DNA of 64,000 bases from Methanobacteriota archaeon (GCA_011523185.1 WTHI01000135.1:8564-72563); one strand, 5' to 3'; shown: positions 2,817 through 48,442, counted from the first letter of the stretch. The notes: a model not told the origin generated them from the sequence alone. Program-made: numbers and translations.

Positions 2817-3449
2817 GTGAACGAAGGGCTAGATGACGAGGAGACGGTTGACGTCTCTGAATGTTCTAATTGTGAAGATTTCACAGAGCATCGAATACTT
2901 CGCAGAGTCAACAAGGGAGAAGGAGAGGACCTACTGATCCAATGTGTTGATTGCAATGAGGTGCAAACCCTTCACTTGAGACCTGGTAAAGCAATCAAGA
3001 TTACTTCAATACTTTCCGATGGAGCCGAAAGTCAAACACAGTCTATTGAATCAGATGATGATGAATTGATCTCTGTAGGTGATGTTTTTGACCATGATGG
3101 AATACTATACAGAGTTACCAGAATAGATGATTCGGACACTAGATCAAAGCAAACTATGGTAGCCAAAGAAATCTCAACACTTTGGGCTGTCCGCTGTGAT
3201 AAATGCAAAGTTCGTTTAACAATGACAGATGGTGAAGAAAGTAGTTCAAAAACTATTGAATGCTCTCCTGATAAGGTGTTTTCATGTGGTTCAATTATGG
3301 AAATAGAAGGAGTCCGTTGGAGAATTCGGGCACTGCATACCGGAAAGGGGAGAACCCTTCGAGGTAAGCGGCCTGCAGTTGACCTTAGGCGAATTTATCT
3401 CCATCCTCCATACAATCCTAGAGAAGACCGAAGACAAAATAGGCGATGA
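2817..3449 (+). CDS. Hypothetical protein with two CxxC...CxxC zinc-ribbon modules and a basic C-terminus
   Basis: CSNC..C.DC and CDKC...C pairs. No recognisable enzymatic motif. Acidic N-terminus and arginine-rich C-terminus. Confidence 0.4.
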   Translation: MNEGLDDEETVDVSECSNCEDFTEHRILRRVNKGEGEDLLIQCVDCNEVQTLHLRPGKAIKITSILSDGAESQTQSIESDDDELISVGDVFDHDGILYRVTRIDDSDTRSKQTMVAKEISTLWAVRCDKCKVRLTMTDGEESSSKTIECSPDKVFSCGSIMEIEGVRWRIRALHTGKGRTLRGKRPAVDLRRIYLHPPYNPREDRRQNRR

Positions 3450-7967: not shown

Positions 7968-10900
7968 ATGAGCATGCAGAGTCCGAGTTTCGAACCCTCT
8001 AGGAAGCGGAAAGCGTTCCTGGCAGTAGTCTGTTTGTTACTACTTTCGGTATCTCCTATGCTCATGATTAATCCAAATCATGACCGAAAATTGGACGATT
8101 TAGAGAATGATTCCTCATTCACAGGAACTGTAGAGCCTTGGATAGATGGAGGGCAGCCTTGGCCGCAGCCTGGAAGAATATCTCAAAGAACATCCGAAGG
8201 GCCTCTCCATTCCCCAACCGGTGGAGCAGGGACTGATTCCCCGAGTAATGCAACCGAATTATCCTCTATTGTCGACCCAGTGATCAATTGGGAATATGGC
8301 ACCTATTCGATAGGCACGGACGCACTCGGAACCCCAGTCGGAGATTTTAGTCAACAAATTGTCACTGATGAGGCAGCCATGGAAAGATGTGGAGGAGATT
8401 CCCTATTCATTGTGCTAATCCAAACCGAAGTAGTCGGGGGTAACGATCACAGTGTTGTGAAAATTATCGAAGGCGAAGATGCTGATTTGGCTTGGGAGGT
8501 AGATTTGGGAGCCACCGAGATAATCAAGGCTTCACCAGTTATTGTAGACCTTGATGATGATGGAATGCAAGAAGTCATAATTGTCTACGACGCAGGTAGT
8601 GCTCTGTATGTTGATGCTTACTCTCCTAGACTTCATTGCTCAGTAACAGGTTGGTCGCCGGGGGGCTCAAAAAGCGGAGAGTTGCTTTGGAGTTATACTG
8701 ACGATAACCTGCAGATAGGAAGTACAAATGGACCCTATACCTCTTCTTGGTTAGGTGGGCATAGACCCACAACTCAACCCTTGCTCGCTGATCTTGATTT
8801 GGACGGAGACGCTGAATTGGTCCTTGCGGTTATCGACGATAACGAAAACCCCGTAGTCTTAGCACTGCCTCTTGGAGCAAATGGAGTGCCTACCCCAATA
8901 TGGCAATCTACGTTAGAGGATGGAAGCCATCCCTCCGATCCATCATTTGCTCAAGTTGATGATCAAACTGCCTATGTTTTACTCACAACCACTGAAGCTT
9001 CCAGTGGAGCGATGTGGGTTTGGAAATTAAATTCTGTATCGGGGGACCAACTATGGTCTCTTAGTCTGTCAAATTTAGATGGCGATTCTGATGTGCCTCA
9101 CATTAGACTCCCAGGGCCGGTAATTGCTAACTTAGATTCTGATTCCACACCTGAAATGATAATTTCAATACCAACCGATGCAGATGGTTCAAGCAGTGTC
9201 GATGGTGCAGAATTTAGAGGGCTAGAGATTGATGATGGATCTGAAATTTGGTCATTTGAGGCTGTAAATGGATACGCTGATGCCCCACCAATAGCAATAG
9301 ATACAGACAATGATAGTGTCATCGATAGAGTTTGCTGGGTAACTTGGTATCAGGAGACTACTGCAAGGCATGGGCATGCAGGCTGCCACGATGTATCAGG
9401 GAATAATCCTCAAATTGAATGGTACAATGACTTAGAGCAATCTAGCGGCTCCCCTAATGACGAAATTGCTGTTGCACAACCAGTCTGGATGGATATTGAT
9501 GGTAGTGGCGCGCCGGAATTGTTAGTGGCATATGGAAGAACTCTTTGGGCTTGGGATGGAGATACTGGGACTCAAGCCGCAATTAACGATAATTGGAACA
9601 ATGAGGTCGAAGTTGACCACAGAACTTGGTCATCTCCAGCCTTAGCAGATCTTGATGGAGATGCAACTTTGGATATAGTTCTGGGTGATACAGTAATCTC
9701 TACGGCTCTTGCCGACGTTAGGCCATTACTAGATGGGCGTGCAATAGAATTCAATCCAAGTGCACCTAATCCTAACGAAGAAGTCACGATTACAGCCTTC
9801 TTTGAAAATGCAGGAACCATTGAAATTGATGAGGCTGTAGACGCAGTCCTATACGCTGATGGAACAGAGATAGCACGCCATCGTGCTAGCAGCTTAGAAC
9901 CGACTGACCCCACTGGTTCAGCAGGGTTCGAATCCTTCTCTGTCGAATGGTCAGGTGGACTTGGAGAATATAATTTCGAATTGGTACTCGACCCATACCA
10001 AAATGTAACTCAATCTCGTTATGACAATGATGCACAATCGACCACTTTGACGATTGTGCCACCTTACAATGCTACATTTGAGATGCCTACGAATCCTGTT
10101 AGAGTTAATCCAGGAGAATCAACCATTGGTCAACCAACTGTTCGCTCAACTGGCCGTCTAGCCGGTGTTTGGAGTATGAACGTCGACGCTAGTAATTTGC
10201 CACAAGGGTGGACCTGGAGTGATGAAACACCAGGAGGAATTACGTCCATTCAAATTTCTGCAGATGGAACTTGGACTCCCTCTCTTAGGATTAACGCGCC
10301 AATAAATGCAGATGGTTCTGATGCAGGATATCTTTCGCTAACTCTTACCCTAGACGAAGATCAGAATGTTAGCGTTAGCGGAGTTTTACCAGTCGAGGCA
10401 AACCGTACACGTGGGTTGTCGATTAGAGGACCGGCGGGGACTACCGCTAGTAGCGGCTATGGTCTAATTGGAGATTCTGCTAAAGCATGGTTGGTCGTAG
10501 AAAATCTCGGGAACGCTGATGAAAATTCAATATCTATGTTCTGGGATAGTACATCTTGGGATTCTGCTGAAAATAGCTTAACCTTACACGATGAAATTGG
10601 AAATGAAATACCCGCATTAACTCTGTCTGCTGGAGAAGAAAAAATCATCTCTGCGAGACTAAATGTACCAACAGATGCATCGCTAGGAGATAGCGTTACT
10701 ACCCCGCTTACCATGTGTGTTGGGAGCGGAGAAGAGGAAACCTGTCAAACCGTGCAATTACAATTCATCGCTACAAGTGTTGTAACCGAAACCAATCACC
10801 AGAGGAGCATGCCTGAGAATACATTGCAATGGAATGTTATTGCAGACCTTCCAGCCTCTTCTGGAGTTTTAGATTGGAAAATTAGTGACGCTGGAATGGG

Positions 10901-24052: not shown

Positions 24053-24520
24053 GTGACTATGTGGCGGAAGGTCGAAGTTGGAGGTTACGAGAACCTTGGG
24101 GAAGAACTAGATGACAATCTGGATAGAGGATTGGATATAGACGCTGAAACCATGCATCAACGGTTTTTGGCAGACCTTCCACATCTTGAATCGGCAAAAA
24201 ATAATCATAACGAGGTATTGACACAGATTTCTAGTAGAATAGATGAGTCAAAGACACATTCTAGGTCATTTGATTCACATAGTGTTGCCTTTGATGAATT
24301 AGATAGAGAGGCGGCAAAAGCGGGATTTGACATCCATTTAGATATGGACACTCTAACTGAACTTTCGGTAACTACGTCAATAGACGATGGCAAAAGATTA
24401 GTCCGAGTGATTGCTCCTGAACGCTTCGGAGGGATGATTCGCACTCTTTCAATTCCAGCGTCAATGGATGTTGAGTCGGCAATTATCTCAGATGGAGTTC
24501 TTCATCTGAATTTTGATTGA
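24053..24520 (+). CDS. Small heat-shock protein-like (Hsp20/alpha-crystallin domain at C-terminus)
   Basis: The C-terminal segment FDIHLDMDTLTELSV...RLVRVIAPERFGGMIRTLSIPASMDVESAIISDGVLHLNF fits the ACD pattern (..f.R...LP..vd...i.A...nGVL.i). The N-terminal half is atypically acidic. Confidence 0.45.
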   Translation: MTMWRKVEVGGYENLGEELDDNLDRGLDIDAETMHQRFLADLPHLESAKNNHNEVLTQISSRIDESKTHSRSFDSHSVAFDELDREAAKAGFDIHLDMDTLTELSVTTSIDDGKRLVRVIAPERFGGMIRTLSIPASMDVESAIISDGVLHLNFD

Positions 24521-27500
24521 TCAGGCGATTGCTTCACTAAGATCGAATGAATCTCTCTCTGGTACGTCTTGTAATTCATCAATTTCTTGCAATACCATCG
24601 TTAGTGCATGCTGAGCGTTTTGTCTATGACCATCTCCCAACTTGTGAGATGAATATCTGGCCTCCTCGAAAATTCGGTCTAATGCCACAAGAGCTTCTTC
24701 ACTAATCGGTAGGGCTTTTCTAATTGCCATTTCAAATTCCCTTACAGTTTCAAAGTCTCGGCGAAGGAATCCATTTCTCATCAGTATATTGCATAGGCTC
24801 TCATAACAACCGAATATAGCCTCTCGGATTTCGTCTCCAGCGGCCAGTAACTCTGCTGTATAACTGAAAATTCCAGCCATTTCATCAATAGCTGCTAAAC
24901 GGCGTTTTCTGAGAGACAAACCTAATCCAACTAGAGTCCCTAAAATCAAGATTATTCCAATTATAGCGATAATCTGCCAGAATGTGAAGAGAGGCGCTGG
25001 ATCTTCGTAAGTCATCTCGATACCGGAATAATCATTGTTCAACCACAATCGATCATTTGGACTGATTAATTGAGAATCTGTTTGGAATATTAGGGATAAT
25101 TCACCCCATTTATTCTTGTCATAAAATGCTGGTTGGTTTTGTATCGTGAAATCATAATCCATTATGCCATTTGAGTCGGTGAGTTTGACATTTTGGAAAT
25201 GTATCACAGATTTATTGACCAATCTAGCGACAATGGAGATACCCTCAACGGGAAGGCCCGTATCATTAGCAACAACTGTTACAGTACCATTTATTCTCCT
25301 CTGGTTTTCCTTGATATGATGGCTATCCGGTGTAAATGTAAATGTCACAGGAACTCGGATGTTGACTATATGTTCAATATCTACACCGTTCAGGAATCTA
25401 TCAGCATCAGGGAGTGCAGATATTGTGAGCGATAACTCTCCAGGAGGCATCGTTGAGCGAGCTGGAGAGATTAGTTCGAAGTGTCCTGTGGATTCATCCC
25501 AAACTAGGATTGAAGGTTCCGCCAAACCGTTCCAAAGTAAGACCACTTCCATACCCTCAATGACGTTGCTTTCCCCACCAACTTCGACAATCCTTCCAAC
25601 CAGTTTAATTTCCTTTGATTCGTCTGAACGAATTATCAGATCGGTTTCCCAAAGAACTTCAATCTGGATATCTGCCTTAGCATAGACCGTCATGTTATAC
25701 TCAACTGGAAGGTAGAATGTTTGGCCCTCAAAGGTGAATCTAATATCATGCCCACCTCTTGCAATTAGGTAGCCAATTGAATAGTCGAATTCGAAAACTC
25801 CATCATTGCCAGTAGTAATTCGGTTGATTTCTACACCATCAAGTGAGATTATAATTTCTCGACCCGAAAGACCTGGCGCCCCTGCGGTATCTGAGTCAAA
25901 TAGTCGTCCTGTGAAGTTCCATTGTTCTCCTCTAGTAACTGACACATCATCCACCTGCAGATTAATCGCAGTGTGGTAAGCAATCGTTAGATTGGCATCT
26001 ACGCTTCCCGGTCTGTAGTAGCCTTGTGCAGGTGCGGTCACAGTTATTGTATGGAAGCCGATGTCCAAGAAGTCTGAAACCACCCAATTGAAAGACCAAT
26101 CTCCATTTTCACGGCTTGTCGTGATGCCCACTAAAGTTCCGTCAATGAAAATCTCAAGTGAATGATTTGCCAACCCTCCATCTGGAAGATTATCCCTAAC
26201 CGTTCCCGTTAATCTCATTTCATCCCCTACGGCATAAGCACTTGGAGGATCTATCGAAATGATGGTTGGTGCGTATACTGTGAATACTGTGGTTGAATTA
26301 GAAGATAGTATGAACTCTTCACCTTGGAAAATTATCTTCACCAAGCGAGGCCCTAGGGGCATATCTGGAGGGATTGGTAGATATACGCTGAATGTACCAT
26401 TTTCCTCTACTTGTAGGCCGGTTAAGAATTGGTCATTCATAGTGACTTCTAGATATCTATCTCCGAGTGTACGACCAGCTCCATCAGTAAGCATTCCTTC
26501 GATCAGGAGTAGTTGGTTCCTATCCACCTCGCCAGGAGGAGTCGTTAGAACGACTTGAGATGTTTGTGTGACATTGAATCCGACTGTAGTGGCAGAAGGC
26601 AAGTAATATTCAGGATTCAAGGAATCTCCTTGACCCATTGGGTCAACCCAAGTAAATCCTCCAAGGAATTTCGCTGTAACTGTATGAGCACCGTAATCCA
26701 TGTCTAATGGTAAATCATAGGTGACTCTCCATTGCCCCGTGGAAGCATTAGAAACTGTTGTGTAGGCTGAACCAACATCAATTCCATCAATCCAAATATG
26801 GATTACTCCACCTGAAATTAGACCGTTATCCGTCAATAATTGACCATGTTCATCTAGAAGTGTGCCAGTGAAGGTAATGTTTTCTCCAGCGATCATAGAT
26901 CCAGTTAATTCTGTGAATTCGATTACGGTTGGTGCCAGAACAATTACTCGAGACCAGGTGGAGTCTCCAATCAATCCTGTAGTTCCATTTATTCCAGAGA
27001 ATTCTGCTGAAATTAACATAGAGCCTTGGGTTCTTTGTGAGTCTACTGGAATAATCAACGTCGCTCGACCAGTTGAGTCAGTTGTTACAGATTGAATGAA
27101 TGAACCATCAACTAGGATGTCTATCTCTGCATTTTCGACCAATTGGCCAGCATTATCTATGATTGAAAGATTAACACTAACATCATCGCCTCTAACAACT
27201 CTTCTATCTGGATCTAGGTCAGCGGGATCTAGGATTGAGATTAGGGAGTAACCTCTACTGTCAAAAGTACCTGTATCACTACTAGAACCGTAATAATTGA
27301 CGGTTGGAGTGTAGCTTGCTGTGATATTATGAGTGCCTCTAGGGAAGGATAGACCGAGGGTAATTACTGCACTCCAAGTACCATTTGGATTAACCACACC
27401 ACCCGTGGCTTGGAATCCAGAATCCGTCCCATCGATTGAGAATGTTAGTGACGAAGGTAGGGCTGCCCCTGTTCTATCCATTATTCCAGTACCATTGCTG

Positions 27501-30500
27501 GAAAGTAAAGTTCCACTAACATTGAAAGATTCGCCGGCAACTGGGTTATCGGTTACTGTTGAAATTGTAAGATTAGTAGGTGAACGAACGAAAATTTGGT
27601 TCATTACAGTAGTTGTAGAGTGTAGAGTTGATGAGCCATTGAAATATAGTGTAATTCCAATTAATCCAAGTGGATGAGAATGTGGAACATCGAATGTGAA
27701 ATTTACTAATCCTTGACCATTAGTTACTCCTTCAGTCAACCATGTATCGTGGAACTTAGCCGCAACCTGCATATCTCCAACTGGAAGGTCATTATCCGAA
27801 AATTCAGTCAATCGAGCACCGAAGGTAATCGATGTGCCCCGATCAACAACCGTCTGGATTATTGGTGTCCTATCTGTGAATCGAGTGACACCCTTTACGA
27901 GAATTGAGGCATTACCCGTACCTGTAAGATAGAATGGAGAACTTCCTTCAATCACGCTCACGACTACAGTCTTCGTGCCACTTGAAACTCCATCTCCGAA
28001 TGGGTCTGTTGGAACTGATACAGAGAACGAACCATTGTTTGTTGTTGTATGACTGGAGACTAAAGTTTCACTTGAATCATTTAGGAAGAAGACTTCTACG
28101 GCCATTGGTCCACTAACACTTCTATTTCCATCGAATCCATCCAAAACTTGTCCAGAAAGTGTAAATGATTGGCCTGCAGTAACTTCTTGAGGTATTGAGG
28201 TAATTTCGACTTGGCTGTCCACCTGCACTGTTAAATTCGCAAATGTATCATTACCAATCCAGCGCCCTGGATCGGCGTCTGTTAGATTATCTGTTAAATC
28301 GTCAGCGGCATGTACTCTAAGGTCATAGAACCCTGGAGTAGTGTCTTCTAGAATAGTAGGGTTAAATCTCGCAACACCATCGACATCTGTTGTAGTTGAG
28401 TCAATAATTACCTGATTAGGGCCACCCCAATCAAAGTACAGGTCGACATCTACATCAGACAGCACAGTCTCATCTGCGATATCTGTAATTGTGGCATTTA
28501 CAATAAGAGTGGTGCCAGCAATGACGATGATTGATTGAGGTTCAGCATCCACTACGAACTCACTTTGAAGACCAGCCAGAACTCTTGTTTGGGTAATTGT
28601 AGTGTAAAACGGCCCTCGAACCTCAGCGGTTGTGGAGAAGTCTAACACAAATCGAAGGAAATAGGCGCCAGATCGAACATCACCCGGCATGGTGAATGAA
28701 TAATTGTAAAATCCTGTGGTTTCATTTATCCAACCATTGGTAAGCGGCACTATTACTGGAGGCGCAGGGCTCCCATCTGGTCCTGGAGGGAGTTCAGAAG
28801 GAATCTCCATTTGGACAACAATAGAAGAGTTGTTACCCGTGATTGGTGTTAGATGGAAAGTATCCTGCGCAAAGCCTGAGACCCAGGTAACGGCGCCCCT
28901 ATCAGTCCACTCTGAACCCAAGGTCACAGTAACATTCGCCCTTCCTTGTATCCTGATTGTATCAGAAACAGAAGTTGATCTGAGCCAAGTAGACCCAGTA
29001 TAGTTCAGCCCCCATTCATAGTCCCCTGCAAACATGTCCGCATTCGGGATCCAAACCACGTTGAAATTTCCCGAATCGGGATCAGTAATGTTGAACACCT
29101 CGGTGCCATTAAAATCGACGGCATATGTTCCCGGGAAATCAGCGACCGAAGTCCCGGTATGGTCTGACAACTGTACAGCAACCGAGGCTTCAAGACCTCG
29201 CTCAGTTGGATTTAGAGTATATTCAAATTCTACATATGACCTGATTCCAAAACTAGACGCAAATGACTCCTCATCAGAGGCGAATAAGTCATCTGCAGTG
29301 TAGATGAATTTCACATCCACAAGGCCCGCTGGTATGGGTACTGAGGACTCATTGAAGTCCCATTGGATTGCAAATTGCCCGGGAGACGTTGTCCAATTAC
29401 TGGAGTTCAATGCCCAGGTCGCGAGATCTGTGTAGGGACCGTTTGTTCCCGCCCTGCGCATCTGGAAAATAAGTGTGCCATTCAATGGGTCAGGAGAGGG
29501 TCCTCTACTAACTGCAGTACCATTTATGAAAATCAACTGATTGATATCAAGGATAGAGGAATTCGAGTCACTTCCTTCTAGGGATATGGATAGGTCTGGA
29601 GAAGGTGTGATGTTGAAGTTGAAATCTAGAGTTTTAGGTCTCAAATGATATTCTGGAATACTGGCATTATTCAAATCGCTCTGATGCCATCCCAGGAATG
29701 CCAAACTGGCATTGATCAATCCAAGAGGTTCGTCATCAGAAATAGGCACTCTAAATTCGAAGTATCCGCCAGCACCCAAATCTGAGATTAGATTGACGTC
29801 TCCGTCTTCTACAGTCGTATAGTTGAGTAATACCTGAAGGCTATCTAGAAATGCCGGATCGGTCTGAGGTAAATTTGCAAGTGCCATGTTACCGGTGACG
29901 CTTGTATTTACACCAACGCCTAGCATAGGTTGGTCTATTGGTATCGGATTAGTAATCGCCAAATTTACATCATCTGTTATGTTAATCACCCATGGGAATG
30001 TTACAGCTTGTACTCCAACATACCCTTTAGATTGAGTTAAGACAACTAAGGAACCATATCCTGGAATTATCATTTCGGAAGGTGAACCATTGAATGAAAA
30101 GAAACCCTCTGAATCGGTGACGGCAGTCCCAATCAGTCGGGTTGCCAATGCAGCGCTACCGGGAACATTTGCTGTCTCATTATCTGGTGTCAAGTAAAGT
30201 TCTAGTGTAATTCCCTCAACACTTGAAGAGTTACTGATAAATTGCAGTGTGCCGTTAAGAGTAATATTACCCGAAGAGTAGTCTCTCTCCAATGTATCAG
30301 GTGAATATGTCTCGTCCACTACCTCGACGACTGAGGCATCAGGACACGCTTCGAATGGAATCCAACCAAGGTCTAGTTCACCTTGATTTGCATTTGTCTG
30401 AAGGTGGACCTCAACCCACCATGAGAAATCATTACCATAAACTTCGAATCCATTGTCAACCCAAGTTCCGCCAGAAAAACCCGTAACTTTTCTGGTAGCT

Positions 30501-33466
30501 AGTCCAATACTTCTCAACATGGCGGCAAAGACTGTTGCAAACTCATCACAATCTCCCTGGTGGGCTTCCTCAAGAATCCAAACTGCAAGATCATCCGAGG
30601 CTTCTGATACCCCCGAGGTAAGAGTTCGGTTCAAATTTGAACCAGCATGATTTCTGAGGAATACGGTAGTATTGTTTCCATTGATGAGGAATTGTTGGAT
30701 AGCTTCAATCTGATCCCATGCGGATACCCAACCGCTCTCGTTTAGAACCTGTTGTGTAATAATCGATACATTATCGAATCCATCATACTCAGTCGCATAA
30801 GTACTGTTTTGGAAAGCTGTAGTGTTGTCCCGAATAGCATCAGTAAAGATGACTTGAGGGGTGGTGACGAACAATTCATCAATAGTGGAGGAATCAATCA
30901 AAACATCCCGTGTATAGTTAGAGAAGTTGAGGCCGGACGATGTATCACTCCAACTTGTGTAGTTGACTGCATTGTAAGGGGCAATCAATTCCTCTCCGGG
31001 GCTCAATATTCCGTCATTTCTAAACGAAATTTGCCAGGAGTGTAGGGCAGAATTATCCCAAAAGTCTGGGTGTGCAACCCCCTGAGTTGTCGACCATGTT
31101 GGGAACATTTGGGTATATCCAACGAGTGTCTTGTTGACACCCCAAGAAACACCCGTGTAATAGTCGTAGGTATGCCATCGCCAATAATGGGTTTGATTGA
31201 AGTCGACTCCAATTGTGGTATTCTCTGCGAAGAAGTAAAGCATGTTCGTAGAAACGTCATCTGTTGGGTCCCAAGGATTGAAAGGAGAGTCTAAGCACCC
31301 GTTTTCCCAGTATTCAGGAGGACATTCGTCTCCATCTGGGATACCGCCTCCATCCGTATCTGGGTCCAGCCAGTCTGTTCCCATTTCTCGTTCGATGGTG
31401 TCTGGAATTCCGTCTCCATCTGTATCTTGTGGATTCAAATCGTCATCGGGATTATTTTGGGGGTTAGTGCCATCAAGATATTCTTGATAGTCTATTACTC
31501 CACCGTTATCTGTGTCAGAGTTATTCCATAGAGTTGTGTAGTTGTCTAAGGACATATTACCATTTTCAATACCAAATATAAGGGGGCAACCTGTGGTATT
31601 TTCAAAATAATTATTCAATCCGTCGCCATCAAAATCATTTAGATTATCACAAGGCTCTAGCGGATCAGTAGCATTGATGATTTCATCGAAATCATTGACT
31701 CCGTCACCATCTGAATCAGTTAGCGTGGGTATTGATTCAAATCCCCAAGAACCCAATGACTCTTCCCAATCTGCTAAACCATCTCCGTCTGTATCTAGAT
31801 AATCGTCATCACAATGCTGTTCATTGGCTGAGCCTAGGGATGCATCCCAACACCAAGAGCCATTGAGCACGACAACATATAGAGCGTCTGAAGGCATAGT
31901 GATTGAAACTGAGCGTAAGATATTGCCATCGATTGAAGAATATTGGAATGGCGTTCTGTTTCCTGTGGCTGATTCGAAATAGGCCATAGGAGCCCCATTT
32001 TGACGCCAATCAATCGGTGTTGGATCTAACTTGCTGGTATTATTAACGGTCACGGAAGAACCAACCGGAACCCATGCAATTACATCAAGATACATTTCGT
32101 AGGTTGATGTACAGGGATTGGTACCATGGGCGGGGGAAAGTTCCGTACCATCATCAATGCCACCACCATCTGTGTCAGCAACATTCCATAGTGTGCAGGT
32201 GGCATTTTCTTCCCAATTTTGTATTCCATCGCCATCAAAATCTCCAGAATCCTCTATCCTAGTGGGGTCGGTTTCGTTAGCGTCAACTACCCCATTGAAA
32301 TTCGTATCTTCTTCACCATCATCAAATTGGTCGCCATCGGTATTATTGTTCCTAGGATCAGAAGCTTGTGGAGGATTTCCGTATGAGCCATTGACCTCAA
32401 CGCCATCTGAAATCCCGTCCCCATCAGTGTCAACTGCTGTGGGGTCTGTAAGAAGGACTAATGCTTCGTATGAATCGTTTAGTCCATCTCCATCGGTATC
32501 ATTATTGTTAGGATCAGTGTAAGTAATTCCATCGACTTCAGCTGTAAATAAAGAGCAAGGAGGAGAACCGGGTCCAAGACCTAATACAGGATTACAAGGA
32601 GATTCAGTATTGGTCCGATTATCAGGACCTGGCCTCCAATATTGAGTTGGGGGATTTGTTGTGCCATTCCTTGTATCCCAAGCGGGATTGACGTATTCGT
32701 AGAGATTGATTAAGCCATCACCATCGGGGTCCCCATTAGTACCATCGTCACCGGAATTTGAGGTTGGATCAAGGTTGTTGGCAACCTCCCAACCATCAGG
32801 CATTCCATCGCCATCTGTATCCCAGCCATCAGGGTCTTCATCGGTTGAATTATCACCATCATCATCGTTGCTTGAACAATCGGCATCACCGTCATTGTCG
32901 CCATCCCAACTGTCGACCATTCCATCATGGTCGTCGTCGAATGTGTTGAAACAAATATTCCCCATTGGGTCTTCATCTGCACCATCAGAGTTCAATCCTT
33001 GAATCAACTGCATAGCACTCTCCTCATCCCAATTGCTTACTGGAACTGTGCCATTCCACCAAACTCCATTATCGAGTTTATTGGGTGTAGTTGCCGAATC
33101 CCAATTAGCAGGTATTCCATATTGGTATTCATTGAGATTAGTTAGTGAGTCTCCATCAGGATCTCCGGTTGAGCCATTGATTCCGGAAGCTGAAAGTGGG
33201 TCGAGTCCATACTGCCATTCCCAGCCATCTGGTAAACCATCCCCATCGGAATCCCAATCTTGTGGTTGGGTGTTGATGTAGTACTCCAATCCATATGGGA
33301 GGCCGTCTCCATCAGCGTCTGTTGACCCCATGGCCTCCCAGGTTGCGAATTCAATTGCTGAGTAAGAAGTTAGCAACATGAGAAGTGTGAATAGAACCGC
33401 CGAACGTTCCTTTCTACGAGCGATTACAAGATTATTCTGACTCGAGTTGCCGAACATCATGTACAC
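24521..33466 (-). CDS. Giant (2981 aa) TgpA-like surface protein: signal peptide, two blocks of TSP3-type Asp-rich Ca-binding repeats, transglutaminase-like cysteine-protease core, long Ig-like/CARDB-like arrays, C-terminal TM anchor and cytoplasmic DUF4129-like tail
   Basis: Signal peptide AVLFTLLMLLTSYSA. Many DxDxDG(L/M)PDGWE repeats. Transglut_core-like motif AHQGDCDEFATVFAAMLRSIGLATRKVTGFSGGTW; the Cys codon complement is at about 30548-30550. TM FWQIIAIIGIILILGTLVGLGL followed by RKRR. The tail IREAIFGCYESLCNILMRNGFLRRDFETVREFEMAI...IFEEARYSSHKL resembles the DUF4129 consensus. Confidence 0.8.
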   Translation of the reverse strand: MYMMFGNSSQNNLVIARRKERSAVLFTLLMLLTSYSAIEFATWEAMGSTDADGDGLPYGLEYYINTQPQDWDSDGDGLPDGWEWQYGLDPLSASGINGSTGDPDGDSLTNLNEYQYGIPANWDSATTPNKLDNGVWWNGTVPVSNWDEESAMQLIQGLNSDGADEDPMGNICFNTFDDDHDGMVDSWDGDNDGDADCSSNDDDGDNSTDEDPDGWDTDGDGMPDGWEVANNLDPTSNSGDDGTNGDPDGDGLINLYEYVNPAWDTRNGTTNPPTQYWRPGPDNRTNTESPCNPVLGLGPGSPPCSLFTAEVDGITYTDPNNNDTDGDGLNDSYEALVLLTDPTAVDTDGDGISDGVEVNGSYGNPPQASDPRNNNTDGDQFDDGEEDTNFNGVVDANETDPTRIEDSGDFDGDGIQNWEENATCTLWNVADTDGGGIDDGTELSPAHGTNPCTSTYEMYLDVIAWVPVGSSVTVNNTSKLDPTPIDWRQNGAPMAYFESATGNRTPFQYSSIDGNILRSVSITMPSDALYVVVLNGSWCWDASLGSANEQHCDDDYLDTDGDGLADWEESLGSWGFESIPTLTDSDGDGVNDFDEIINATDPLEPCDNLNDFDGDGLNNYFENTTGCPLIFGIENGNMSLDNYTTLWNNSDTDNGGVIDYQEYLDGTNPQNNPDDDLNPQDTDGDGIPDTIEREMGTDWLDPDTDGGGIPDGDECPPEYWENGCLDSPFNPWDPTDDVSTNMLYFFAENTTIGVDFNQTHYWRWHTYDYYTGVSWGVNKTLVGYTQMFPTWSTTQGVAHPDFWDNSALHSWQISFRNDGILSPGEELIAPYNAVNYTSWSDTSSGLNFSNYTRDVLIDSSTIDELFVTTPQVIFTDAIRDNTTAFQNSTYATEYDGFDNVSIITQQVLNESGWVSAWDQIEAIQQFLINGNNTTVFLRNHAGSNLNRTLTSGVSEASDDLAVWILEEAHQGDCDEFATVFAAMLRSIGLATRKVTGFSGGTWVDNGFEVYGNDFSWWVEVHLQTNANQGELDLGWIPFEACPDASVVEVVDETYSPDTLERDYSSGNITLNGTLQFISNSSSVEGITLELYLTPDNETANVPGSAALATRLIGTAVTDSEGFFSFNGSPSEMIIPGYGSLVVLTQSKGYVGVQAVTFPWVINITDDVNLAITNPIPIDQPMLGVGVNTSVTGNMALANLPQTDPAFLDSLQVLLNYTTVEDGDVNLISDLGAGGYFEFRVPISDDEPLGLINASLAFLGWHQSDLNNASIPEYHLRPKTLDFNFNITPSPDLSISLEGSDSNSSILDINQLIFINGTAVSRGPSPDPLNGTLIFQMRRAGTNGPYTDLATWALNSSNWTTSPGQFAIQWDFNESSVPIPAGLVDVKFIYTADDLFASDEESFASSFGIRSYVEFEYTLNPTERGLEASVAVQLSDHTGTSVADFPGTYAVDFNGTEVFNITDPDSGNFNVVWIPNADMFAGDYEWGLNYTGSTWLRSTSVSDTIRIQGRANVTVTLGSEWTDRGAVTWVSGFAQDTFHLTPITGNNSSIVVQMEIPSELPPGPDGSPAPPVIVPLTNGWINETTGFYNYSFTMPGDVRSGAYFLRFVLDFSTTAEVRGPFYTTITQTRVLAGLQSEFVVDAEPQSIIVIAGTTLIVNATITDIADETVLSDVDVDLYFDWGGPNQVIIDSTTTDVDGVARFNPTILEDTTPGFYDLRVHAADDLTDNLTDADPGRWIGNDTFANLTVQVDSQVEITSIPQEVTAGQSFTLSGQVLDGFDGNRSVSGPMAVEVFFLNDSSETLVSSHTTTNNGSFSVSVPTDPFGDGVSSGTKTVVVSVIEGSSPFYLTGTGNASILVKGVTRFTDRTPIIQTVVDRGTSITFGARLTEFSDNDLPVGDMQVAAKFHDTWLTEGVTNGQGLVNFTFDVPHSHPLGLIGITLYFNGSSTLHSTTTVMNQIFVRSPTNLTISTVTDNPVAGESFNVSGTLLSSNGTGIMDRTGAALPSSLTFSIDGTDSGFQATGGVVNPNGTWSAVITLGLSFPRGTHNITASYTPTVNYYGSSSDTGTFDSRGYSLISILDPADLDPDRRVVRGDDVSVNLSIIDNAGQLVENAEIDILVDGSFIQSVTTDSTGRATLIIPVDSQRTQGSMLISAEFSGINGTTGLIGDSTWSRVIVLAPTVIEFTELTGSMIAGENITFTGTLLDEHGQLLTDNGLISGGVIHIWIDGIDVGSAYTTVSNASTGQWRVTYDLPLDMDYGAHTVTAKFLGGFTWVDPMGQGDSLNPEYYLPSATTVGFNVTQTSQVVLTTPPGEVDRNQLLLIEGMLTDGAGRTLGDRYLEVTMNDQFLTGLQVEENGTFSVYLPIPPDMPLGPRLVKIIFQGEEFILSSNSTTVFTVYAPTIISIDPPSAYAVGDEMRLTGTVRDNLPDGGLANHSLEIFIDGTLVGITTSRENGDWSFNWVVSDFLDIGFHTITVTAPAQGYYRPGSVDANLTIAYHTAINLQVDDVSVTRGEQWNFTGRLFDSDTAGAPGLSGREIIISLDGVEINRITTGNDGVFEFDYSIGYLIARGGHDIRFTFEGQTFYLPVEYNMTVYAKADIQIEVLWETDLIIRSDESKEIKLVGRIVEVGGESNVIEGMEVVLLWNGLAEPSILVWDESTGHFELISPARSTMPPGELSLTISALPDADRFLNGVDIEHIVNIRVPVTFTFTPDSHHIKENQRRINGTVTVVANDTGLPVEGISIVARLVNKSVIHFQNVKLTDSNGIMDYDFTIQNQPAFYDKNKWGELSLIFQTDSQLISPNDRLWLNNDYSGIEMTYEDPAPLFTFWQIIAIIGIILILGTLVGLGLSLRKRRLAAIDEMAGIFSYTAELLAAGDEIREAIFGCYESLCNILMRNGFLRRDFETVREFEMAIRKALPISEEALVALDRIFEEARYSSHKLGDGHRQNAQHALTMVLQEIDELQDVPERDSFDLSEAIA
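31366..33346 (-). repeat. Coding tandem repeats of thrombospondin-type-3-like Asp-rich Ca-binding motifs (DxDxDGxxDxxE) in the N-terminal part of the 2981-aa protein
   Basis: More than 20 copies of D(T/S/P)DGDG(L/M/I)(P/N/S)D.(W/Y/F)E. The antisense frames give His-rich and Met-rich pseudo-ORFs (32758-32949 and 32710-32985), as expected for GAT-rich DNA. Confidence 0.6.
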
Positions 33467-33471
33467 CCTCT

Positions 33472-33486
33472 ACCGCCTACGGCGGT
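33472..33486. other. Perfect 6-bp hairpin accgcc-tac-ggcggt in the 76-nt spacer between the two giant minus-strand genes
   Basis: Direct reading. It may be a processing or attenuation structure between the co-directional giant genes. Confidence 0.25.
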
Positions 33487-33541
33487 TCATACGGGTCTTA
33501 AGCGGAATGGAGCGTCGTTCGGACGATGATTAGGGGTCAAC

Positions 33542-36481
33542 TCATACGAGTTCTATATCATCGTCGTCATAAACCATCTCTTCCTCTTCCTCTTCCTCAA
33601 CAATAGGTGTGTGATAATCTTCTTCAGAGTCGATGTCTAAATCCTCATTTTCAGCCTCTTTCATAGCCTCAATTAGAGCCAAATGAGCTGCCCATTTTCT
33701 GCGGTTCATTCGGCTTTGTACGCCCGCAAAAATTAGCAAAATCGCAACTACCATTACAATTAATGTAGATGCACGAGGATTGGTAACCTCATTTATCAGA
33801 CGATCAAAAATACCATCAATTCCGACAACCATGTTGAGATTCTTTTCGGCTGTGAATTCATCAGGCCAGCTCTGCTCAGTGTCGTGAGGTTCTGCTGTTA
33901 TCGTAATCTTCGCTGTATCGCCATTATTTGCGGAGGATGGAACCGAGACTTCTAGCGTGAAGGTCACCTCTTCAAAGGCGTCCAATTCAATTAACCTTGA
34001 ACTTGTAGGACCTCCTATGTCTACATTCCATCCAGACGTACCTTCTACTTCGGCATCAAGTAGAACAATTAGTGGACTGTTACCTTTGTTACGAACCTCA
34101 AATTGGAAGGAATAAAGACCACCGGGTGCAAGTTTTCGGTTTGAGGTAACTTGTACAATTGAAAGGTCGGGTTCATCCGCGTCAACTTCGAACACCATTG
34201 GCAAATCGAAATATCTTGGATTTGAATCTGATGTATCCTCCCTTATTCTTAGGTAAACAGTGTGGTTACCAACGATGACTTGGTCGGTTAGAGTGACTAC
34301 TACAAACACCTCTGTGAAGTCACCTGGACCGAGAGATACCTGAGGCACAGCTGACCCGTTTTGATCCAAAATTCGGTATTCCCATTGCCCGTAAGCCGCC
34401 AATCTATCGGTATTTTCTGGAAGGCTTGCTGGATTGATAATCTGCCATTGAGTAGCGGATTCTCCGCTCGTCATACTATTCGTTATGCGGGCACGTAGAT
34501 TCACTTCCGGGTCGTTAAGTGTGGAACAAAGGGACACCTGGATATGGCCTAGTGGGGTGCCATCACAATCTTGAGATACTTCCGCCCGAATACCGAATGT
34601 TCTCTGAATTGTAAACTCAACCGTAGTCCTGAGGGAGGCATTTCCACTGCTTATTACCTCAATCTCAATCATCCCGATATCTGGGTCCTCTCGGTCTGTT
34701 GAAGGTTTTACATTGAAACGAAGAATCTGAGTTGAATGTCTCTCTAGCGGTGGTATATGGAAAGTTCCATCGCCATCATCTTCTAGGATTCTTTCCCCTG
34801 TATCGTTGTCGTAAATCTGGATTATTGACTTAGAACGCTTTAGAATATCTACTCTGAAATTATCTGTGTCGAATCCTGTGTTGAAAATCTCTAGTAAGAA
34901 GGTATTGAATTGGTTGTCCTCAACATATCTTGGTATTGTTGGGTCGATATCACCCGGGCGGCTAGAGTTAGCAATTGGTATGTCGTGATCTTCATTCCAT
35001 ATCGAAACATCTGGAGGCTGATAGACTTCCAGCTTTTCTAAATCGAGGGTAAGGAGGTCTTGATGGACGACGGTTTGAACACCTTCTATCGTGGCTTCAG
35101 CAACTGCTCTAATCTCAATTTTATCAGGCGTTCCTGTCAAATCATCAGGGGCCGTTATAGTAAGTATTGGATTCAGAATATCACCTCCTGAATTCAAGGT
35201 GTAACCGCCTGGTGAGTCGAACTCAACAAGCCATGAACTACCAAGGTTAGTGAGCAACTCAAGTTCTACAGTCATTGATTTGGTAGAATCTCCTCTGTGG
35301 ACTAATTGAAGTGGTACCGGAGTTGTTTCATCGGGGGCAACATATTCCACAGTTCTGTCTTCCCGGTGGTTAATCGCTACACCCCATTGTTTCATTTCAA
35401 CAGGTTCATGCTCAACGAGGAATGCGTTACCTTGAACGTCTGTAATTTCCAATTCAACAGTGTACTCTCCAGAAGGAAGACCGCTTGGATAAGTCCATGT
35501 GTAGGTGCCGAAAATACCCTGACTAGTATCTCTGATTCCATCATCATCCGATGAAATCTCATGGTCTATGCGGTAATTTCCATTTGGATCTCGCATCAAT
35601 AATTTCACAGAATCCATATCTTCTCTACCAAAGGCGCTCTTCACATCAAAGGAGAATTGCATTGTTCGATCGGCCAATACATCATTCGGATACCATTCTA
35701 ATTCTACTCCGTCAGCAAGTTCGGCTCCATCTCTTTGGAGTATAACTTCACTGTCGGCAATGGCGTTAGTTTCTACTTCCATTTGGGAATATCGATTGCT
35801 TTCTCCATCAATCTCGTTCCATGCCACCTCTGCTTCACAACTACTTCCAAATGGACCGCCTGAACTTTCACATCCAGACATTTCAGCAGAGACCTCAACT
35901 GTTAATTCATTACCATCTTGGATAACAAAACCATCTCCGCCGTCCAATATCACTTCGAATAGTTCATGATCGAAGTTGCAAGAGTTAGTTATCCCTGGAT
36001 TACATGCGTCTGTTTCCCAAGACTCGGAGCCAACGGTATTGCCATTTGCACTAATCACAATATCCCAGGTGACCTGAGAGTTGCTAGGTCCCTGAGCGCG
36101 GAGGAAAAATTGCACTGGAATGTAAAATTGACCGCTTGACGATCCATGTTTTGGTCGGCCGGTGATTTCGAGGGAACTCAACAGATCTCCAGTTGTGAAC
36201 TCTATTGTAGAATCTAATGCACTAGAGGTCGATTGACCACCTGACTCAGGCACCATTGTTGAAATGTGGCCATCACCTCCGGAAGACGAGTTGGCTTCTG
36301 CAAAATAGAGTGTGTAGATTTTGGATTCAATATCCTCTGAATTCTCTGCCTTAGTGTCCGTTTGAAGATAGGTTGGTTGTGTAAAAAAAGTGGCCATTTG
36401 AGGAGTTATCATCAATATCGCGAGGAATATCGCAATTTGGGTGAACTTGCCATCTCGAAACGGCGTACTGCTCCCACTCAT
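33542..36481 (-). CDS. Large (979 aa) secreted surface protein with CARDB/NEW3-like domains, C-terminal TM anchor and poly-acidic cytoplasmic tail; first gene of the giant-protein pair
   Basis: N-terminal hydrophobic signal (IAIFLAILMITPQMATFF). DLSIVQVTSNRKLAPGGLYSFQFEVRNKGNSPL is a CARDB-type motif. C-terminal TM LIVMVVAILLIFAGV, then RMNRRKW and EEEEEEEMVYDDDD. Confidence 0.7.
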   Translation of the reverse strand: MSGSSTPFRDGKFTQIAIFLAILMITPQMATFFTQPTYLQTDTKAENSEDIESKIYTLYFAEANSSSGGDGHISTMVPESGGQSTSSALDSTIEFTTGDLLSSLEITGRPKHGSSSGQFYIPVQFFLRAQGPSNSQVTWDIVISANGNTVGSESWETDACNPGITNSCNFDHELFEVILDGGDGFVIQDGNELTVEVSAEMSGCESSGGPFGSSCEAEVAWNEIDGESNRYSQMEVETNAIADSEVILQRDGAELADGVELEWYPNDVLADRTMQFSFDVKSAFGREDMDSVKLLMRDPNGNYRIDHEISSDDDGIRDTSQGIFGTYTWTYPSGLPSGEYTVELEITDVQGNAFLVEHEPVEMKQWGVAINHREDRTVEYVAPDETTPVPLQLVHRGDSTKSMTVELELLTNLGSSWLVEFDSPGGYTLNSGGDILNPILTITAPDDLTGTPDKIEIRAVAEATIEGVQTVVHQDLLTLDLEKLEVYQPPDVSIWNEDHDIPIANSSRPGDIDPTIPRYVEDNQFNTFLLEIFNTGFDTDNFRVDILKRSKSIIQIYDNDTGERILEDDGDGTFHIPPLERHSTQILRFNVKPSTDREDPDIGMIEIEVISSGNASLRTTVEFTIQRTFGIRAEVSQDCDGTPLGHIQVSLCSTLNDPEVNLRARITNSMTSGESATQWQIINPASLPENTDRLAAYGQWEYRILDQNGSAVPQVSLGPGDFTEVFVVVTLTDQVIVGNHTVYLRIREDTSDSNPRYFDLPMVFEVDADEPDLSIVQVTSNRKLAPGGLYSFQFEVRNKGNSPLIVLLDAEVEGTSGWNVDIGGPTSSRLIELDAFEEVTFTLEVSVPSSANNGDTAKITITAEPHDTEQSWPDEFTAEKNLNMVVGIDGIFDRLINEVTNPRASTLIVMVVAILLIFAGVQSRMNRRKWAAHLALIEAMKEAENEDLDIDSEEDYHTPIVEEEEEEEMVYDDDDIELV

Positions 36482-36612: not shown

Positions 36613-36698
36613 GCAGGGGTACCCGAGCTGGTCAAAGGGGCCGGACTTAAGCTCCGGTGCGTAGAGCTTCGTGGGTTCAAATCCCACCCCCTGCACCA
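36613..36698 (+). tRNA. tRNA-Leu (anticodon UAA), class II with long variable arm, genomically encoded CCA
   Basis: Manual cloverleaf: acceptor gcagggg/cccctgc; anticodon stem ccgga/tccgg with loop cTTAAgc (U33, anticodon TAA, G37); T-arm gtggg-ttcaaat-cccac; discriminator A then CCA. Confidence 0.85.
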
Positions 36699-46708: not shown

Positions 46709-48442
46709 GTGAATTTTCGGTATCCTATGACGAACTGGGAGTCACTTACCGTAGCACAACTGAAAGAGGAGTGCAAAAGCCGTGGGCTTTCGGTTGGGGG
46801 AAAGAAGGCCGATTTAGTGGCTAGACTAGAGGAACACGCCATCCCAATTGATGTCCTTGATGCAGAAATAGCCGACAATTCAAGGCCCCCTACTGCACGA
46901 AGTATTGTAAGTCGAGTGAAACAACTGCCTGTATCGGTTTTGGCTGTGATTGGAATCATGCTAATTGGTACTATGGGAGGAGCATTACTCTACGGCGATG
47001 ATGTAATCAAATGGATTCAGGGAGAACCAGATTACCAATTAATCGAATTTGATCCAACGAGTGCTAGAGGATATGCGCAGAGTCTGGTAGATCTAGGACA
47101 TCCAGAATGGGAGGGTAGAATGTCAGGAACTATCGAGGAACACAACACTGCGGATTTCATCAAAGCCAATTTTACCTCGATGGGGATTCCATCAACCATT
47201 GAGGATTTTGATGTTCCAATGTTCGTCATTGATGATGAACCGGAATTGGGAATTTGTCATGCAGGAGATGTAGGCCAAACCCTCCCTGCTTTTGCTTGTG
47301 GTGCCACTGATGTAAATGCTGATTTCATCAACTTTGAACACAGAAGTGATTTTGTTTTGCAAGGATATTCCGGCTCTTCCTTCATTCGATATGTCGATGA
47401 TATAGATGTGGTAGACTTAGGTACAGGAAACGAAAGTGCGGATTGGAACACCGGAGCGGGTTCTGTTGTCCTGATACACATGACTGAAGAAACCGAATCC
47501 AATACCGTCCTATTCAAGAGAGCATCAGAAAACGATGTTGAAGGATTAATCCTGATTAATGAAAGACAGAATTGTGACGAATTGGTTTCTGGAGATTGTA
47601 TTCCTTACTTCAAATCGGTCGATATCTCTGCGATTGACAATATACCCATAGACATGGGATTCATAATGGTCAGCCAAAGTGTTGGTCAGACAATAATTGA
47701 TGATGTGATCAATCAGGATGGCAGATTACAATTTATGACCTATGTTGAGAATGCAGGTGAAGCTACTGTCAAAGTTCCTTGTGGAATTATTCAAGGAGAG
47801 TCTGATTCTTTGATTATAATCGGCGCACACCACGATACTGTATACATGGCTCAAGGTGCTGTAGACGATTCTTCAGGGACCGCAACTGTTCTAGAAATGG
47901 CTCGCCAATTCGGATTAATTGAAAGTCAAATGGGCACCCCAAAACACACCATTTACTTCTGTACTTGGGGAGGGGAGGAAGAAGGATTGTTTGGATCTAC
48001 AGCATGGGTAGATAAACATCGAAATAACCTCTATGAGAATCTTCGCCTATACATCAATTTAGACATGAATCACGTCGATGCCGAAAGAAATTCAGGTGTC
48101 ACTTTGTTTGGAAACCATAACACAGACGTTAGCCATATCAGAGGTATATCAGAGAAATTCAAACAACAATATCCTGACCTTGCAGACCGATACAATATCC
48201 AAGTTCGCAAACTTGACGATACGGACATGCCATACAACTCTGATCACGCTCCATTCGTATACAATATCGATGAAGATGAATCGGATGGAAAACAATACGG
48301 CAGGGCTGTAGTTTGCTATGGCTCGGGGTCCACTGAATATCACACATATCTCGATACTATGGACAGATTCAATGAAGAAAGCCTAGCAGTCTCTGGAATA
48401 ATCTACGGATCATTGGTGTACTACCTCGCCTACGGCGATTGA
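46709..48442 (+). CDS. Membrane-anchored M28-family aminopeptidase with cytoplasmic N-terminal SAP/HeH motif
   Basis: SAP-like LTVAQLKEECKSRGLSVGGKKADLVARLEEH; TM LPVSVLAVIGIMLIGTMGGALLY; M28 zinc-ligand region IIIGAHHDTVYMAQGAVDDSSGTATVLEMARQF. Confidence 0.65.
   Translation: MNFRYPMTNWESLTVAQLKEECKSRGLSVGGKKADLVARLEEHAIPIDVLDAEIADNSRPPTARSIVSRVKQLPVSVLAVIGIMLIGTMGGALLYGDDVIKWIQGEPDYQLIEFDPTSARGYAQSLVDLGHPEWEGRMSGTIEEHNTADFIKANFTSMGIPSTIEDFDVPMFVIDDEPELGICHAGDVGQTLPAFACGATDVNADFINFEHRSDFVLQGYSGSSFIRYVDDIDVVDLGTGNESADWNTGAGSVVLIHMTEETESNTVLFKRASENDVEGLILINERQNCDELVSGDCIPYFKSVDISAIDNIPIDMGFIMVSQSVGQTIIDDVINQDGRLQFMTYVENAGEATVKVPCGIIQGESDSLIIIGAHHDTVYMAQGAVDDSSGTATVLEMARQFGLIESQMGTPKHTIYFCTWGGEEEGLFGSTAWVDKHRNNLYENLRLYINLDMNHVDAERNSGVTLFGNHNTDVSHIRGISEKFKQQYPDLADRYNIQVRKLDDTDMPYNSDHAPFVYNIDEDESDGKQYGRAVVCYGSGSTEYHTYLDTMDRFNEESLAVSGIIYGSLVYYLAYGD

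Follow-up and report, generated by a model that had tools for sequence, protein, structure and literature searches.

What role can be assigned to an archaeal protein of 2981 residues that bears a transglutaminase (TG)-like module and, at its other end, a DUF4129 domain? The question is raised by a 64-kb stretch of DNA (GCA_011523185.1 WTHI01000135.1:8564-72563), hereafter the window, whose source genome belongs to the MGIIb group (Thalassarchaeaceae) within the archaea called Marine Group II (MGII), or Poseidoniales. Two adjoining minus-strand open reading frames (ORFs) are found there, with the positions and lengths already given in an initial annotation of this DNA. One, here called the giant, occupies 24521-33466, opens with GTG and would encode a type-I membrane glycoprotein; the other, its partner of 979 residues, lies at 33542-36481, and a spacer of 75 nt (33467-33541) separates the two. 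We consider, with moderate confidence, that the pair forms a Ca2+-dependent adhesin or adhesion fibril, or else an envelope scaffold, in which a heavily N-glycosylated giant carries a pseudo-transglutaminase module.

A TgpA-like module and its active site

Matches above the Pfam cut-offs confirm both domains. Transglut_core matches the giant at residues 955-1040 (nt 30347-30604; 47.2 bits, cut-off 23) and DUF4129 at residues 2887-2955 (nt 24602-24808; 29.2 bits, cut-off 24.8), and the two strings from which the initial annotation had anticipated them, QGDCDEFATVFAAMLRSIGLATRKVTGF and ETVREF...EEARYSS, are indeed present. The core belongs to a larger extracellular module (residues 728-1062; 30281-31285, minus strand), made up of a β-sandwich subdomain and the transglutaminase-like core. 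These residues were aligned with 20 homologues and modelled with AlphaFold2 (AF2), giving a predicted local distance difference test score (pLDDT) of 84.5 and a predicted template-modelling score (pTM) of 0.86. Foldseek placed the model on the periplasmic domain of Pseudomonas aeruginosa TgpA (PDB code 6G49) over 312 columns, with an E-value of 1.3e-12 and template-modelling scores of 0.53/0.60; a Cytophaga putative cysteine protease and TG2 were the runners-up. The same PDB entry is reached by sequence, the family profile matching it at E = 8e-9. The original description of the giant as TgpA-like is thus sustained, both by this match of a 335-residue ectodomain module and by the position of DUF4129 behind a transmembrane (TM) helix, and the protein is best described as a derived TgpA.

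The fold is retained in the module, as is the oxyanion-helix motif G-x-C-x-E-F; the Cys-His-Asp triad, on which the initial annotation had staked its enzymatic proposal, is not intact anywhere in the giant family. In human transglutaminase this triad consists of Cys277/His335/Asp358 (PMC13073648). The degenerate site of the giant (30344-30550, minus strand) has Cys973 (nt 30548-30550) as the equivalent of the nucleophile, Ser1015 (nt 30422-30424) at the position of the catalytic His, Glu1039 at that of the Asp and Cys1041 (nt 30344-30346) in place of the Thr of the 'DPT' motif. This Thr, Thr360 in TG2, lines the active-site tunnel and shows strict conservation (PMC13073648), so that Cys1041 occupies the tunnel position beside the former nucleophile.

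In a census of 123 family members, the positions of Cys973 and Cys1041 were each found to be Cys without exception (123/123). His was never encountered at position 1015 (0/123), which is instead T in 66 sequences, A in 21, S in 17, D in 8, N in 5, G in 4, and Q and L in one each, while the acid position 1039 is E in 66, D in 33, Q in 12, N in 7 and some other residue in 5. Single-sequence and profile alignments agree in pairing 'DAHAWVEY' of TgpA with 'DFSWWVEV' of the giant (family consensus 'ltsWvE'), which sets the catalytic His of TgpA on Ser in the giant and on Thr in the family consensus. A joint alignment shows 'AHxWxEVYF ... GWxxF(D/E)PTP' to be kept in bacterial TgpA-like representatives and in a haloarchaeal protein discussed below; the His is absent from all MGII members, those of MGIIa and of the deepest clusters among them, and they read 'F(E/D)xCP'. 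A nearby residue, H1021, was considered as a substitute catalytic His and ruled out, being R, Q or N in several clades.

Since the general-base His is gone throughout the family, canonical transglutaminase or protease function is considered unlikely, and with it the crosslinking or protease role first suggested for the protein. For the same reason, the labels 'transglutaminase domain-containing protein' and 'putative cysteine protease' seen in databases are not to be taken for predictions of enzymatic activity. The module may better be regarded as a pseudo-enzyme with a binding or structural role.

The distribution of cysteines bears on the state of Cys973. All 14 ectodomain Cys of the giant lie within its first 1,041 residues and form seven consecutive pairs, conserved or nearly so in the family. 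Across the family the number of Cys in the head is invariably even (12, 14, 16 or 18); C715 and C724 have been lost jointly in four sequences; and the stalk is free of Cys in most members. Thrombospondin type-3 (TSP3) repeats are known to form a disulfide-stapled Ca2+ 'wire', and the paired pattern of the giant matches such an arrangement. This suggests that Cys973 and Cys1041 may also be joined in a disulfide bond, which would lock the former nucleophile.

Architecture of the giant and its partner

A signal peptide is predicted at residues 1-48 of the giant (33323-33466, minus strand), with a K/R-rich n-region, a hydrophobic core and probable cleavage after 'WEAMGS'. The alignment of family N-termini shows a conserved 'EA(M/L)(A/G)(S/T)-TD.DGDG', the dash here marking the putative cleavage point, which would thus fall immediately before the first DxDxDG motif. 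The ORF opens with GTG-TAC-ATG-ATG (33457-33466, minus strand) and GAGGG lies 7 nt 5' of the first ATG, a placement that suggests that translation may in fact begin at codon 3 or 4 (33460/33457), giving a product of 2,978-2,979 residues.

The membrane-distal head (residues 49-727; 31286-33322, minus strand) consists of Asp-rich, TSP3-type repeats, putatively Ca2+-binding, interleaved with six conserved Cys pairs. TSP3_bac matches four stretches (28.1 bits, Pfam cut-off 25), and in NCBIfam the head is matched in part by CglD (99 bits) and MtsD (60 bits), whose equivalog cut-offs are 400 and 800, respectively. The earlier count of more than 20 DxDxDG(L/M)PDGWE repeats was too high: six motifs obey the strict form DxDxDGxxDxxE, 13 a loose form and 20 a minimal DxDxDG-like one, and only two have the form DGDG[LM]PDGWE. 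Judged by these motifs, the head would be expected to bind Ca2+.

Beyond the TgpA-like module comes a stalk (residues 1067-2685; 25412-30268, minus strand) in which iterative searches with hidden Markov models recognise at least 14 tandem immunoglobulin (Ig)-like domains with a period of about 110 residues. Its length of around 1,600 residues agrees with the Ig-like array of more than 1500 residues reported before, and the array probably continues to about residue 2800, for some 16 domains in all. In Pfam terms this region matches Big_3_5 in the giant (best stretch at residues 1972-2068, 55.9 bits, cut-off 35.5) and MG2, CarboxypepD_reg or Big_1 in homologues.

The single C-terminal TM helix with a DUF4129-like tail, also part of the initial annotation, is recovered at residues 2832-2850 (24917-24973, minus strand; Kyte-Doolittle value 2.85). 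It is followed by RKRR, as expected of the positive-inside rule, and by a cytoplasmic tail (residues 2851-2981; 24524-24916, minus strand) that holds DUF4129. This tail can be related to that of a haloarchaeal TgpA-like protein in a pairwise BLASTP comparison (E = 0.008). A PDB sequence search with the tail gave a coiled-coil protein as its sole match, judged to be spurious. TgpA_N (DUF3488) has no Pfam match in the giant but does match the haloarchaeal comparator, and a reading of the C-terminus found no PGF-CTERM signal, the TM helix being followed instead by a folded tail of 131 residues.

Sequons of the N-x-S/T type number 87 in the ectodomain, compared with 33.6 ± 4.9 expected, an enrichment of about 2.6-fold. 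Members of the family have between 72 and 105, with none in the cytoplasmic tail, and none is present beyond the TM helix of the giant itself. These figures point to a giant that is probably heavily N-glycosylated. Per-residue conservation, measured in bins of 50 residues, reaches 0.7-0.8 in the TSP3 head and 0.67-0.81 in the cytoplasmic tail, the two best-conserved parts of the protein; the TG core takes a middle place (0.49-0.61) and the TM helix the last.

The partner had been described as a secreted CARDB protein, and neither term now seems apt. CARDB (PF07705) finds no match in the window partner at E <= 0.01 in Pfam, where there are only weak matches to Ig-like families (FixG_C, 26.3 bits); among 39 orthologues, CARDB is matched in three (E >= 0.0019), NPCBM_assoc in 16 and FixG_C in 10. 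An AF2 model built from a 39-sequence alignment (pLDDT 79.1, pTM 0.43) comprises an N-terminal helix, about 7-8 β-sandwiches, a long TM helix and a disordered acidic tail, and Foldseek relates it only to generic multi-MG/Ig β-sandwich arrays, at global template-modelling scores of 0.1-0.18. The β-sandwich domains span residues ~54-886, after an N-terminal signal or anchor; the TM helix lies at residues ~904-922 (nt 33716-33772) and the acidic tail, with a net charge of -17, at residues 923-979 (33545-33715), all on the minus strand. Since it has a C-terminal TM helix and cytoplasmic tail of its own, the partner is membrane-anchored and not simply secreted; as modelled, it is a type-I membrane string of β-sandwich domains. 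Alignment of the tails shows the extreme C-terminus, DDD(I/L)EL(V/L), to be kept from MGIIa to MGIIb, and it looks like a docking motif for a cytoplasmic protein.

No sequence homology is detectable between partner and giant. One Ig-like domain of the partner recurs (BLASTP 5e-5) in a second large surface protein of the window, of 1,892 residues (7968-13646, plus strand). The latter contains FG-GAP, fn3_5 and NPCBM_assoc domains, between a signal-like N-terminal segment and a charged, Lys/Glu-rich C-terminus.

Distribution, gene order and the intergenic spacer

More than 2,000 relatives of the giant are present in the databases. Full-length sequences make up 119 of the best 120, at 41-91% identity, and across this range the length of the protein scarcely varies (2981 ± 13.6 residues, range 2931-3017, n = 119). 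The few named homologues are called 'transglutaminase domain-containing protein' and come from metagenome-assembled genomes of Candidatus Thalassarchaeaceae, Marine Group II or Thermoplasmatota. Among species-representative genomes that were scanned, its members turn up in both MGII families: matches in MGIIb include Thalassarchaeum betae and MED-G33/35, and that in MGIIa is a Poseidonia sp. protein with 34% identity over the module. In an exhaustive profile search of 1.84 billion representatives, only about seven clusters at 50% identity have the full module, at residues ~713-779 of proteins 2,700-3,090 residues long. The partner has a similar reach, with 728 homologues found from the window sequence and 655 from a divergent orthologue, all of ~950-985 residues and drawn from both MGIIa and MGIIb; the name, wherever there is one, is 'hypothetical' or 'uncharacterized membrane protein'.

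The synteny check suggested at the outset gave a clear result, partner and giant occurring together in the MGIIa, MGIIb and deep-branch loci examined. The conserved order runs lipoyl synthase, SDR, (FolB); tRNA-Leu(TAA) on the opposite strand; a partner of ~960-990 residues; the giant; a small convergent ORF; and XPD helicase. It is constant in loci whose giants have 55%, 43% and 41% identity to that of the window, as well as in an MGIIa locus (L012), in L011 and in the deepest cluster (P0254, locus L037). The partners encoded in the first three share 61%, 38% and 34% identity with that of the window, so that partner co-varies with giant. The partner is always upstream of the giant, and directly so except in locus L003. 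There a gene for a 419-residue PRORP/Zc3h12a-like RNase (8599-9858 of that locus) is inserted between the two, which shows that strict adjacency is not obligatory. The pair is ancestral and positionally fixed in the Marine Group II archaea. Its universality, fixed position and constant length (giant ~2,980 residues, partner ~970), with ~12 kb given over to it in a streamlined genome, make it a prime candidate for a core structure of envelope or adhesion.

The small convergent ORF is represented in the window by an acidic product of 155 residues (24053-24520, plus strand), which abuts the stop of the giant and immediately follows the XPD helicase gene, whose strand it shares. It matches no family in Pfam or NCBIfam. 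An ORF of 139-189 residues stands at this place in every MGII locus examined, with 21-31% identity in the three orthologues compared.

The tRNA-Leu(TAA) gene (36613-36698, plus strand; ARAGORN and Rfam) had been taken to lie directly upstream of the pair. It is in fact on the opposite strand, divergent from the pair and 131 nt upstream of the partner start, and is best seen as a conserved neighbour outside the system. An integration hotspot or island at the tRNA was ruled out by flat GC content, by the fixed place and strand of the tRNA in L001, L003 and L004 and by the conserved neighbours. These are archaeal housekeeping genes: a DtdA-type deacylase, class I LysRS, XPD helicase, a 2-oxoacid dehydrogenase operon, lipoyl synthase and aRF1. 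MoxR and DUF58 genes, as previously remarked, are lacking: none was found in the window, where all ORFs of at least 150 residues plus FolB were scanned, or within the 10 kb flanking six related loci (L001-L005 and L037). Elsewhere in the window, a protein of 577 residues (46709-48442, plus strand) unites an M28 peptidase domain with a SAP domain at its N-terminus, of a kind that normally binds DNA; the pairing is unusual.

The spacer between partner and giant was originally described as 76 nt long and containing a hairpin. It is one nucleotide shorter, and its fold is no more stable than those of shuffled sequences (z = -0.59 and +0.78 in the window, -1.6 to +1.0 across loci), so that a regulatory RNA hairpin was discarded. 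The GC hairpin just 5' of the giant start has stems that vary in sequence and position between loci and is not conserved, and Rfam matched nothing but the tRNA in the window. Two other loci have a GC-rich hairpin, CUCCCC-GUA-GGGGAG, with a run of U, just past the partner stop (L004 9965-9981, L011 7742-7758); it looks like a terminator, and the window has no equivalent at that position.

What is conserved in the spacer is a gene-specific motif of ~33 nt (33490-33525, minus strand; core TCCATTCCGCTTAAG at 33497-33511), GT(A/C)YGAAC-N3-G(C/T)TCCATT(C/T)NNCTTAAG, 36-52 nt upstream of the giant start. It is present in 8 of 11 MGII loci, from MGIIa and MGIIb alike (the window, L001, L007, L008, L010, L011, L012 and L015), and occurs only once in the window. 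The motif is probably the giant's own TATA-like promoter together with a gene-specific operator, in which case the giant is not simply co-transcribed with its partner.

Possible functions and comparison with known systems

The arrangement that we favour can be summarised as follows. The giant would be exported by its signal peptide and anchored by its one C-terminal TM helix, displaying, from the membrane outward, the Ig-like stalk, the TgpA-like TG-fold module and a Ca2+-binding, disulfide-stapled TSP3 head. Having lost its general-base His and gained a Cys at the position of the tunnel Thr, the module would serve as a pseudo-enzyme for binding or structure, by analogy with erythrocyte Band 4.2, with the former nucleophile Cys973 held in a disulfide by Cys1041. 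Giant and type-I membrane partner (~980 residues) would act jointly as an adhesion fibril or envelope scaffold, and their conserved cytoplasmic tails, through DUF4129 in the case of the giant, could tie the assembly to an intracellular component. Such a reading fits the literature on MGII archaea, in that 'thrombospondin' genes are widespread in Poseidoniales and were read as adhesion genes by Rinke et al. (PMC6461757), and Ca-dependent adhesin domains are enriched in particle-attached MGII according to Orsi et al. (PMC4511931).

Several observations nevertheless weigh against it. The invariance of Cys973 would fit a retained chemical role as well, E or D persists at the acid position in 99 of the 123 sequences, and H1021, a His four residues past the conserved Trp, is present in most members. 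The spacer motif suggests that the two genes may be transcribed separately, and the case for a complex of giant and partner comes down to conserved adjacency and co-variation, from which one might be expected. Furthermore, genes kept so strictly among housekeeping neighbours more typically have an essential role in the envelope than one as a niche-specific adhesin.

The first two of these points would suit an active enzyme, that is, a surface transglutaminase, or a cysteine protease or amidase of the papain-like kind, that works through a non-canonical active site to crosslink or cleave envelope or substrate proteins. Retention of the fold and of the oxyanion-helix motif is in keeping with this, as are the transglutaminase activity of the TgpA periplasmic domain in vitro (PMC3507681) and the known capacity of MGII archaea for protein degradation (PMC6336850). 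We nonetheless regard it as unlikely: the residues that replace His in all 123 sequences are small or polar and unable to substitute for it, H1021 is itself replaced in several clades, the tunnel Thr has been exchanged for Cys and every Cys of the head is in a conserved pair, a pattern that points to a disulfide locking the nucleophile, and the TG core is less conserved than head or tail. Just as unlikely, in our view, is a housekeeping envelope-biogenesis factor of the TgpA type, whose DUF4129 a MoxR-type AAA+ ATPase and a DUF58 protein, encoded in other parts of the genome, would service. Envelope assembly is the role proposed for the essential TgpA of Pseudomonas, with which the giant shares its topology (PMC3507681), DUF4129 surpasses the rest of the protein in conservation, the gene is universal, length-invariant and set among housekeeping genes, and haloarchaeal TgpA-like genes do lie behind MoxR and a weak DUF58-like gene. 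Yet MoxR and DUF58 are missing both from the window and from the 10-kb surroundings of the six related loci, TgpA_N is missing from the giant, the catalytic His that TgpA retains has been lost, and a stalk of 1,700 residues topped by a TSP3 head is hard to square with a membrane-proximal assembly enzyme.

A further reading would make the pair an integrin-like, two-chain transmembrane adhesion receptor. The TSP3 head and His-less TgpA fold would then bind ligand, Cys973/Cys1041 would be a redox-gated or covalent-capture site (one possibility being a long-lived thioester, formed with a substrate Gln and, for want of the His, not resolvable), and DUF4129 and the DDDxELV-COOH tail of the partner could couple binding to cytoplasmic machinery. 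This is speculative and we rate it as rather improbable; if true, the ocean's most abundant planktonic archaea would possess a dedicated outside-in sensor of attachment. Least probable of all, it seems to us, is that giant and partner are the principal structural proteins of the MGII envelope, a major S-layer-like glycoprotein pair. Such a role would accommodate the strong enrichment of sequons, the C-terminal TM anchors and β-sandwich arrays of both proteins and their universal presence at fixed length, and no other S-layer candidate in MGII is mentioned in PMC6461757, PMC6864105 or PMC6336850. A 320-kDa monomer with a folded cytoplasmic domain of 130 residues would, however, be atypical, no PGF-CTERM or archaeosortase signal is seen in the sequence, and the window encodes another large surface protein with similar features, the 1,892-residue product mentioned above.

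An adhesion fibril or envelope scaffold therefore remains the account that we prefer, and the question arises of how much of it is new. The suggestion that nothing of the kind had been described for archaea stands in one respect: full-text literature searches found no paper describing the architecture of the giant. Nor did they find any linking transglutaminase with MGII or Poseidoniales, or DUF4129 with transglutaminase, and DUF4129 by itself matched only unrelated papers. In other respects it does not stand, given the haloarchaeal TgpA-like genes beside MoxR, the more than 2,000 automatically named relatives and the 'thrombospondin' genes already noted in Poseidoniales (PMC6461757). The family is present in databases, though only auto-annotated, and its components, a TgpA-like TG module, DUF4129, TSP3 repeats and Ig arrays, are all of known kinds. 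Noteworthy are the family-wide loss of His with the accompanying Thr-to-Cys change, the strict conservation of length and position, and the co-conserved partner. A highly conserved DUF4129 on a single-pass giant with no MoxR or DUF58 neighbours also offers a new angle on this uncharacterised domain.

Among the closest known systems is TgpA itself (PA2873 of P. aeruginosa), in which six TM helices accompany a periplasmic TG domain at residues 180-544 with a conserved triad (PMC3507681). The giant has the same two-subdomain extracytoplasmic TG module, with the fold of 6G49, and keeps the motif of the nucleophile Cys and the sequence of TG module outside, TM helix and cytoplasmic DUF4129. The architecture had been called inverted with respect to bacterial proteins, but this order is that of TgpA (PMC3507681). 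The differences lie elsewhere. Instead of the five-helix TgpA_N, the giant has a predicted cleavable signal peptide; its catalytic His has gone and Cys stands in for the Thr of 'DPT'; an Ig-like stalk of ~1,700 residues intervenes between TG module and TM helix; a TSP3 head of ~680 residues has been added; and in place of a MoxR/DUF58 operon its neighbour is an Ig-array membrane protein of ~980 residues.

Also archaeal are the haloarchaeal loci L021 (Haloferacaceae) and L016 (Halobacteriales), in which MoxR (AAA_3) and a weak DUF58-like ORF precede a protein of 621-781 residues with Transglut_core and a C-terminal DUF4129, the tail of which aligns to that of the giant. The middle ORF has only sub-threshold matches to DUF58 (E = 0.015-0.021), so that this part of the comparison is weakly supported. 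These loci show that canonical TgpA operons exist in archaea and that the MGII locus departs from them. The L021 protein differs from the giant in keeping the canonical 'AHAW...FDPTP' active site and in having TgpA_N, and both haloarchaeal proteins are far smaller. The representative search also yielded two other giants, P0247 (2,801 residues) and P0248 (2,678 residues), with 4-7 tandem Transglut_core domains. P0247 resembles the MGII protein in its great size and in combining Transglut_core with Ig/MG-like domains and a weak C-terminal match to DUF4129, but differs in its several TG cores, which keep the His, and in its HEAT repeats. Several TG copies in P0248 are without Cys and/or His.

With thrombospondin TSP3 repeats and with CglD and MtsD of Myxococcus, the giant shares DxDxDGxxDxxE motifs, predicted here to bind Ca2+, interleaved with Cys pairs. 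The likeness to CglD and MtsD extends to the repeats only, neither having a TG module, Ig stalk or DUF4129. A precedent for the module itself is provided by erythrocyte Band 4.2, an inactive member of the TG-fold family with a scaffolding role (PMC13073648). Like the giant, it combines a TG fold and disabled triad with membrane association, as a structural or scaffold protein; Band 4.2 is, however, eukaryotic and cytoplasmic and lacks the whole triad, whereas the giant is predicted to be extracellular and has kept the Cys while losing the His.

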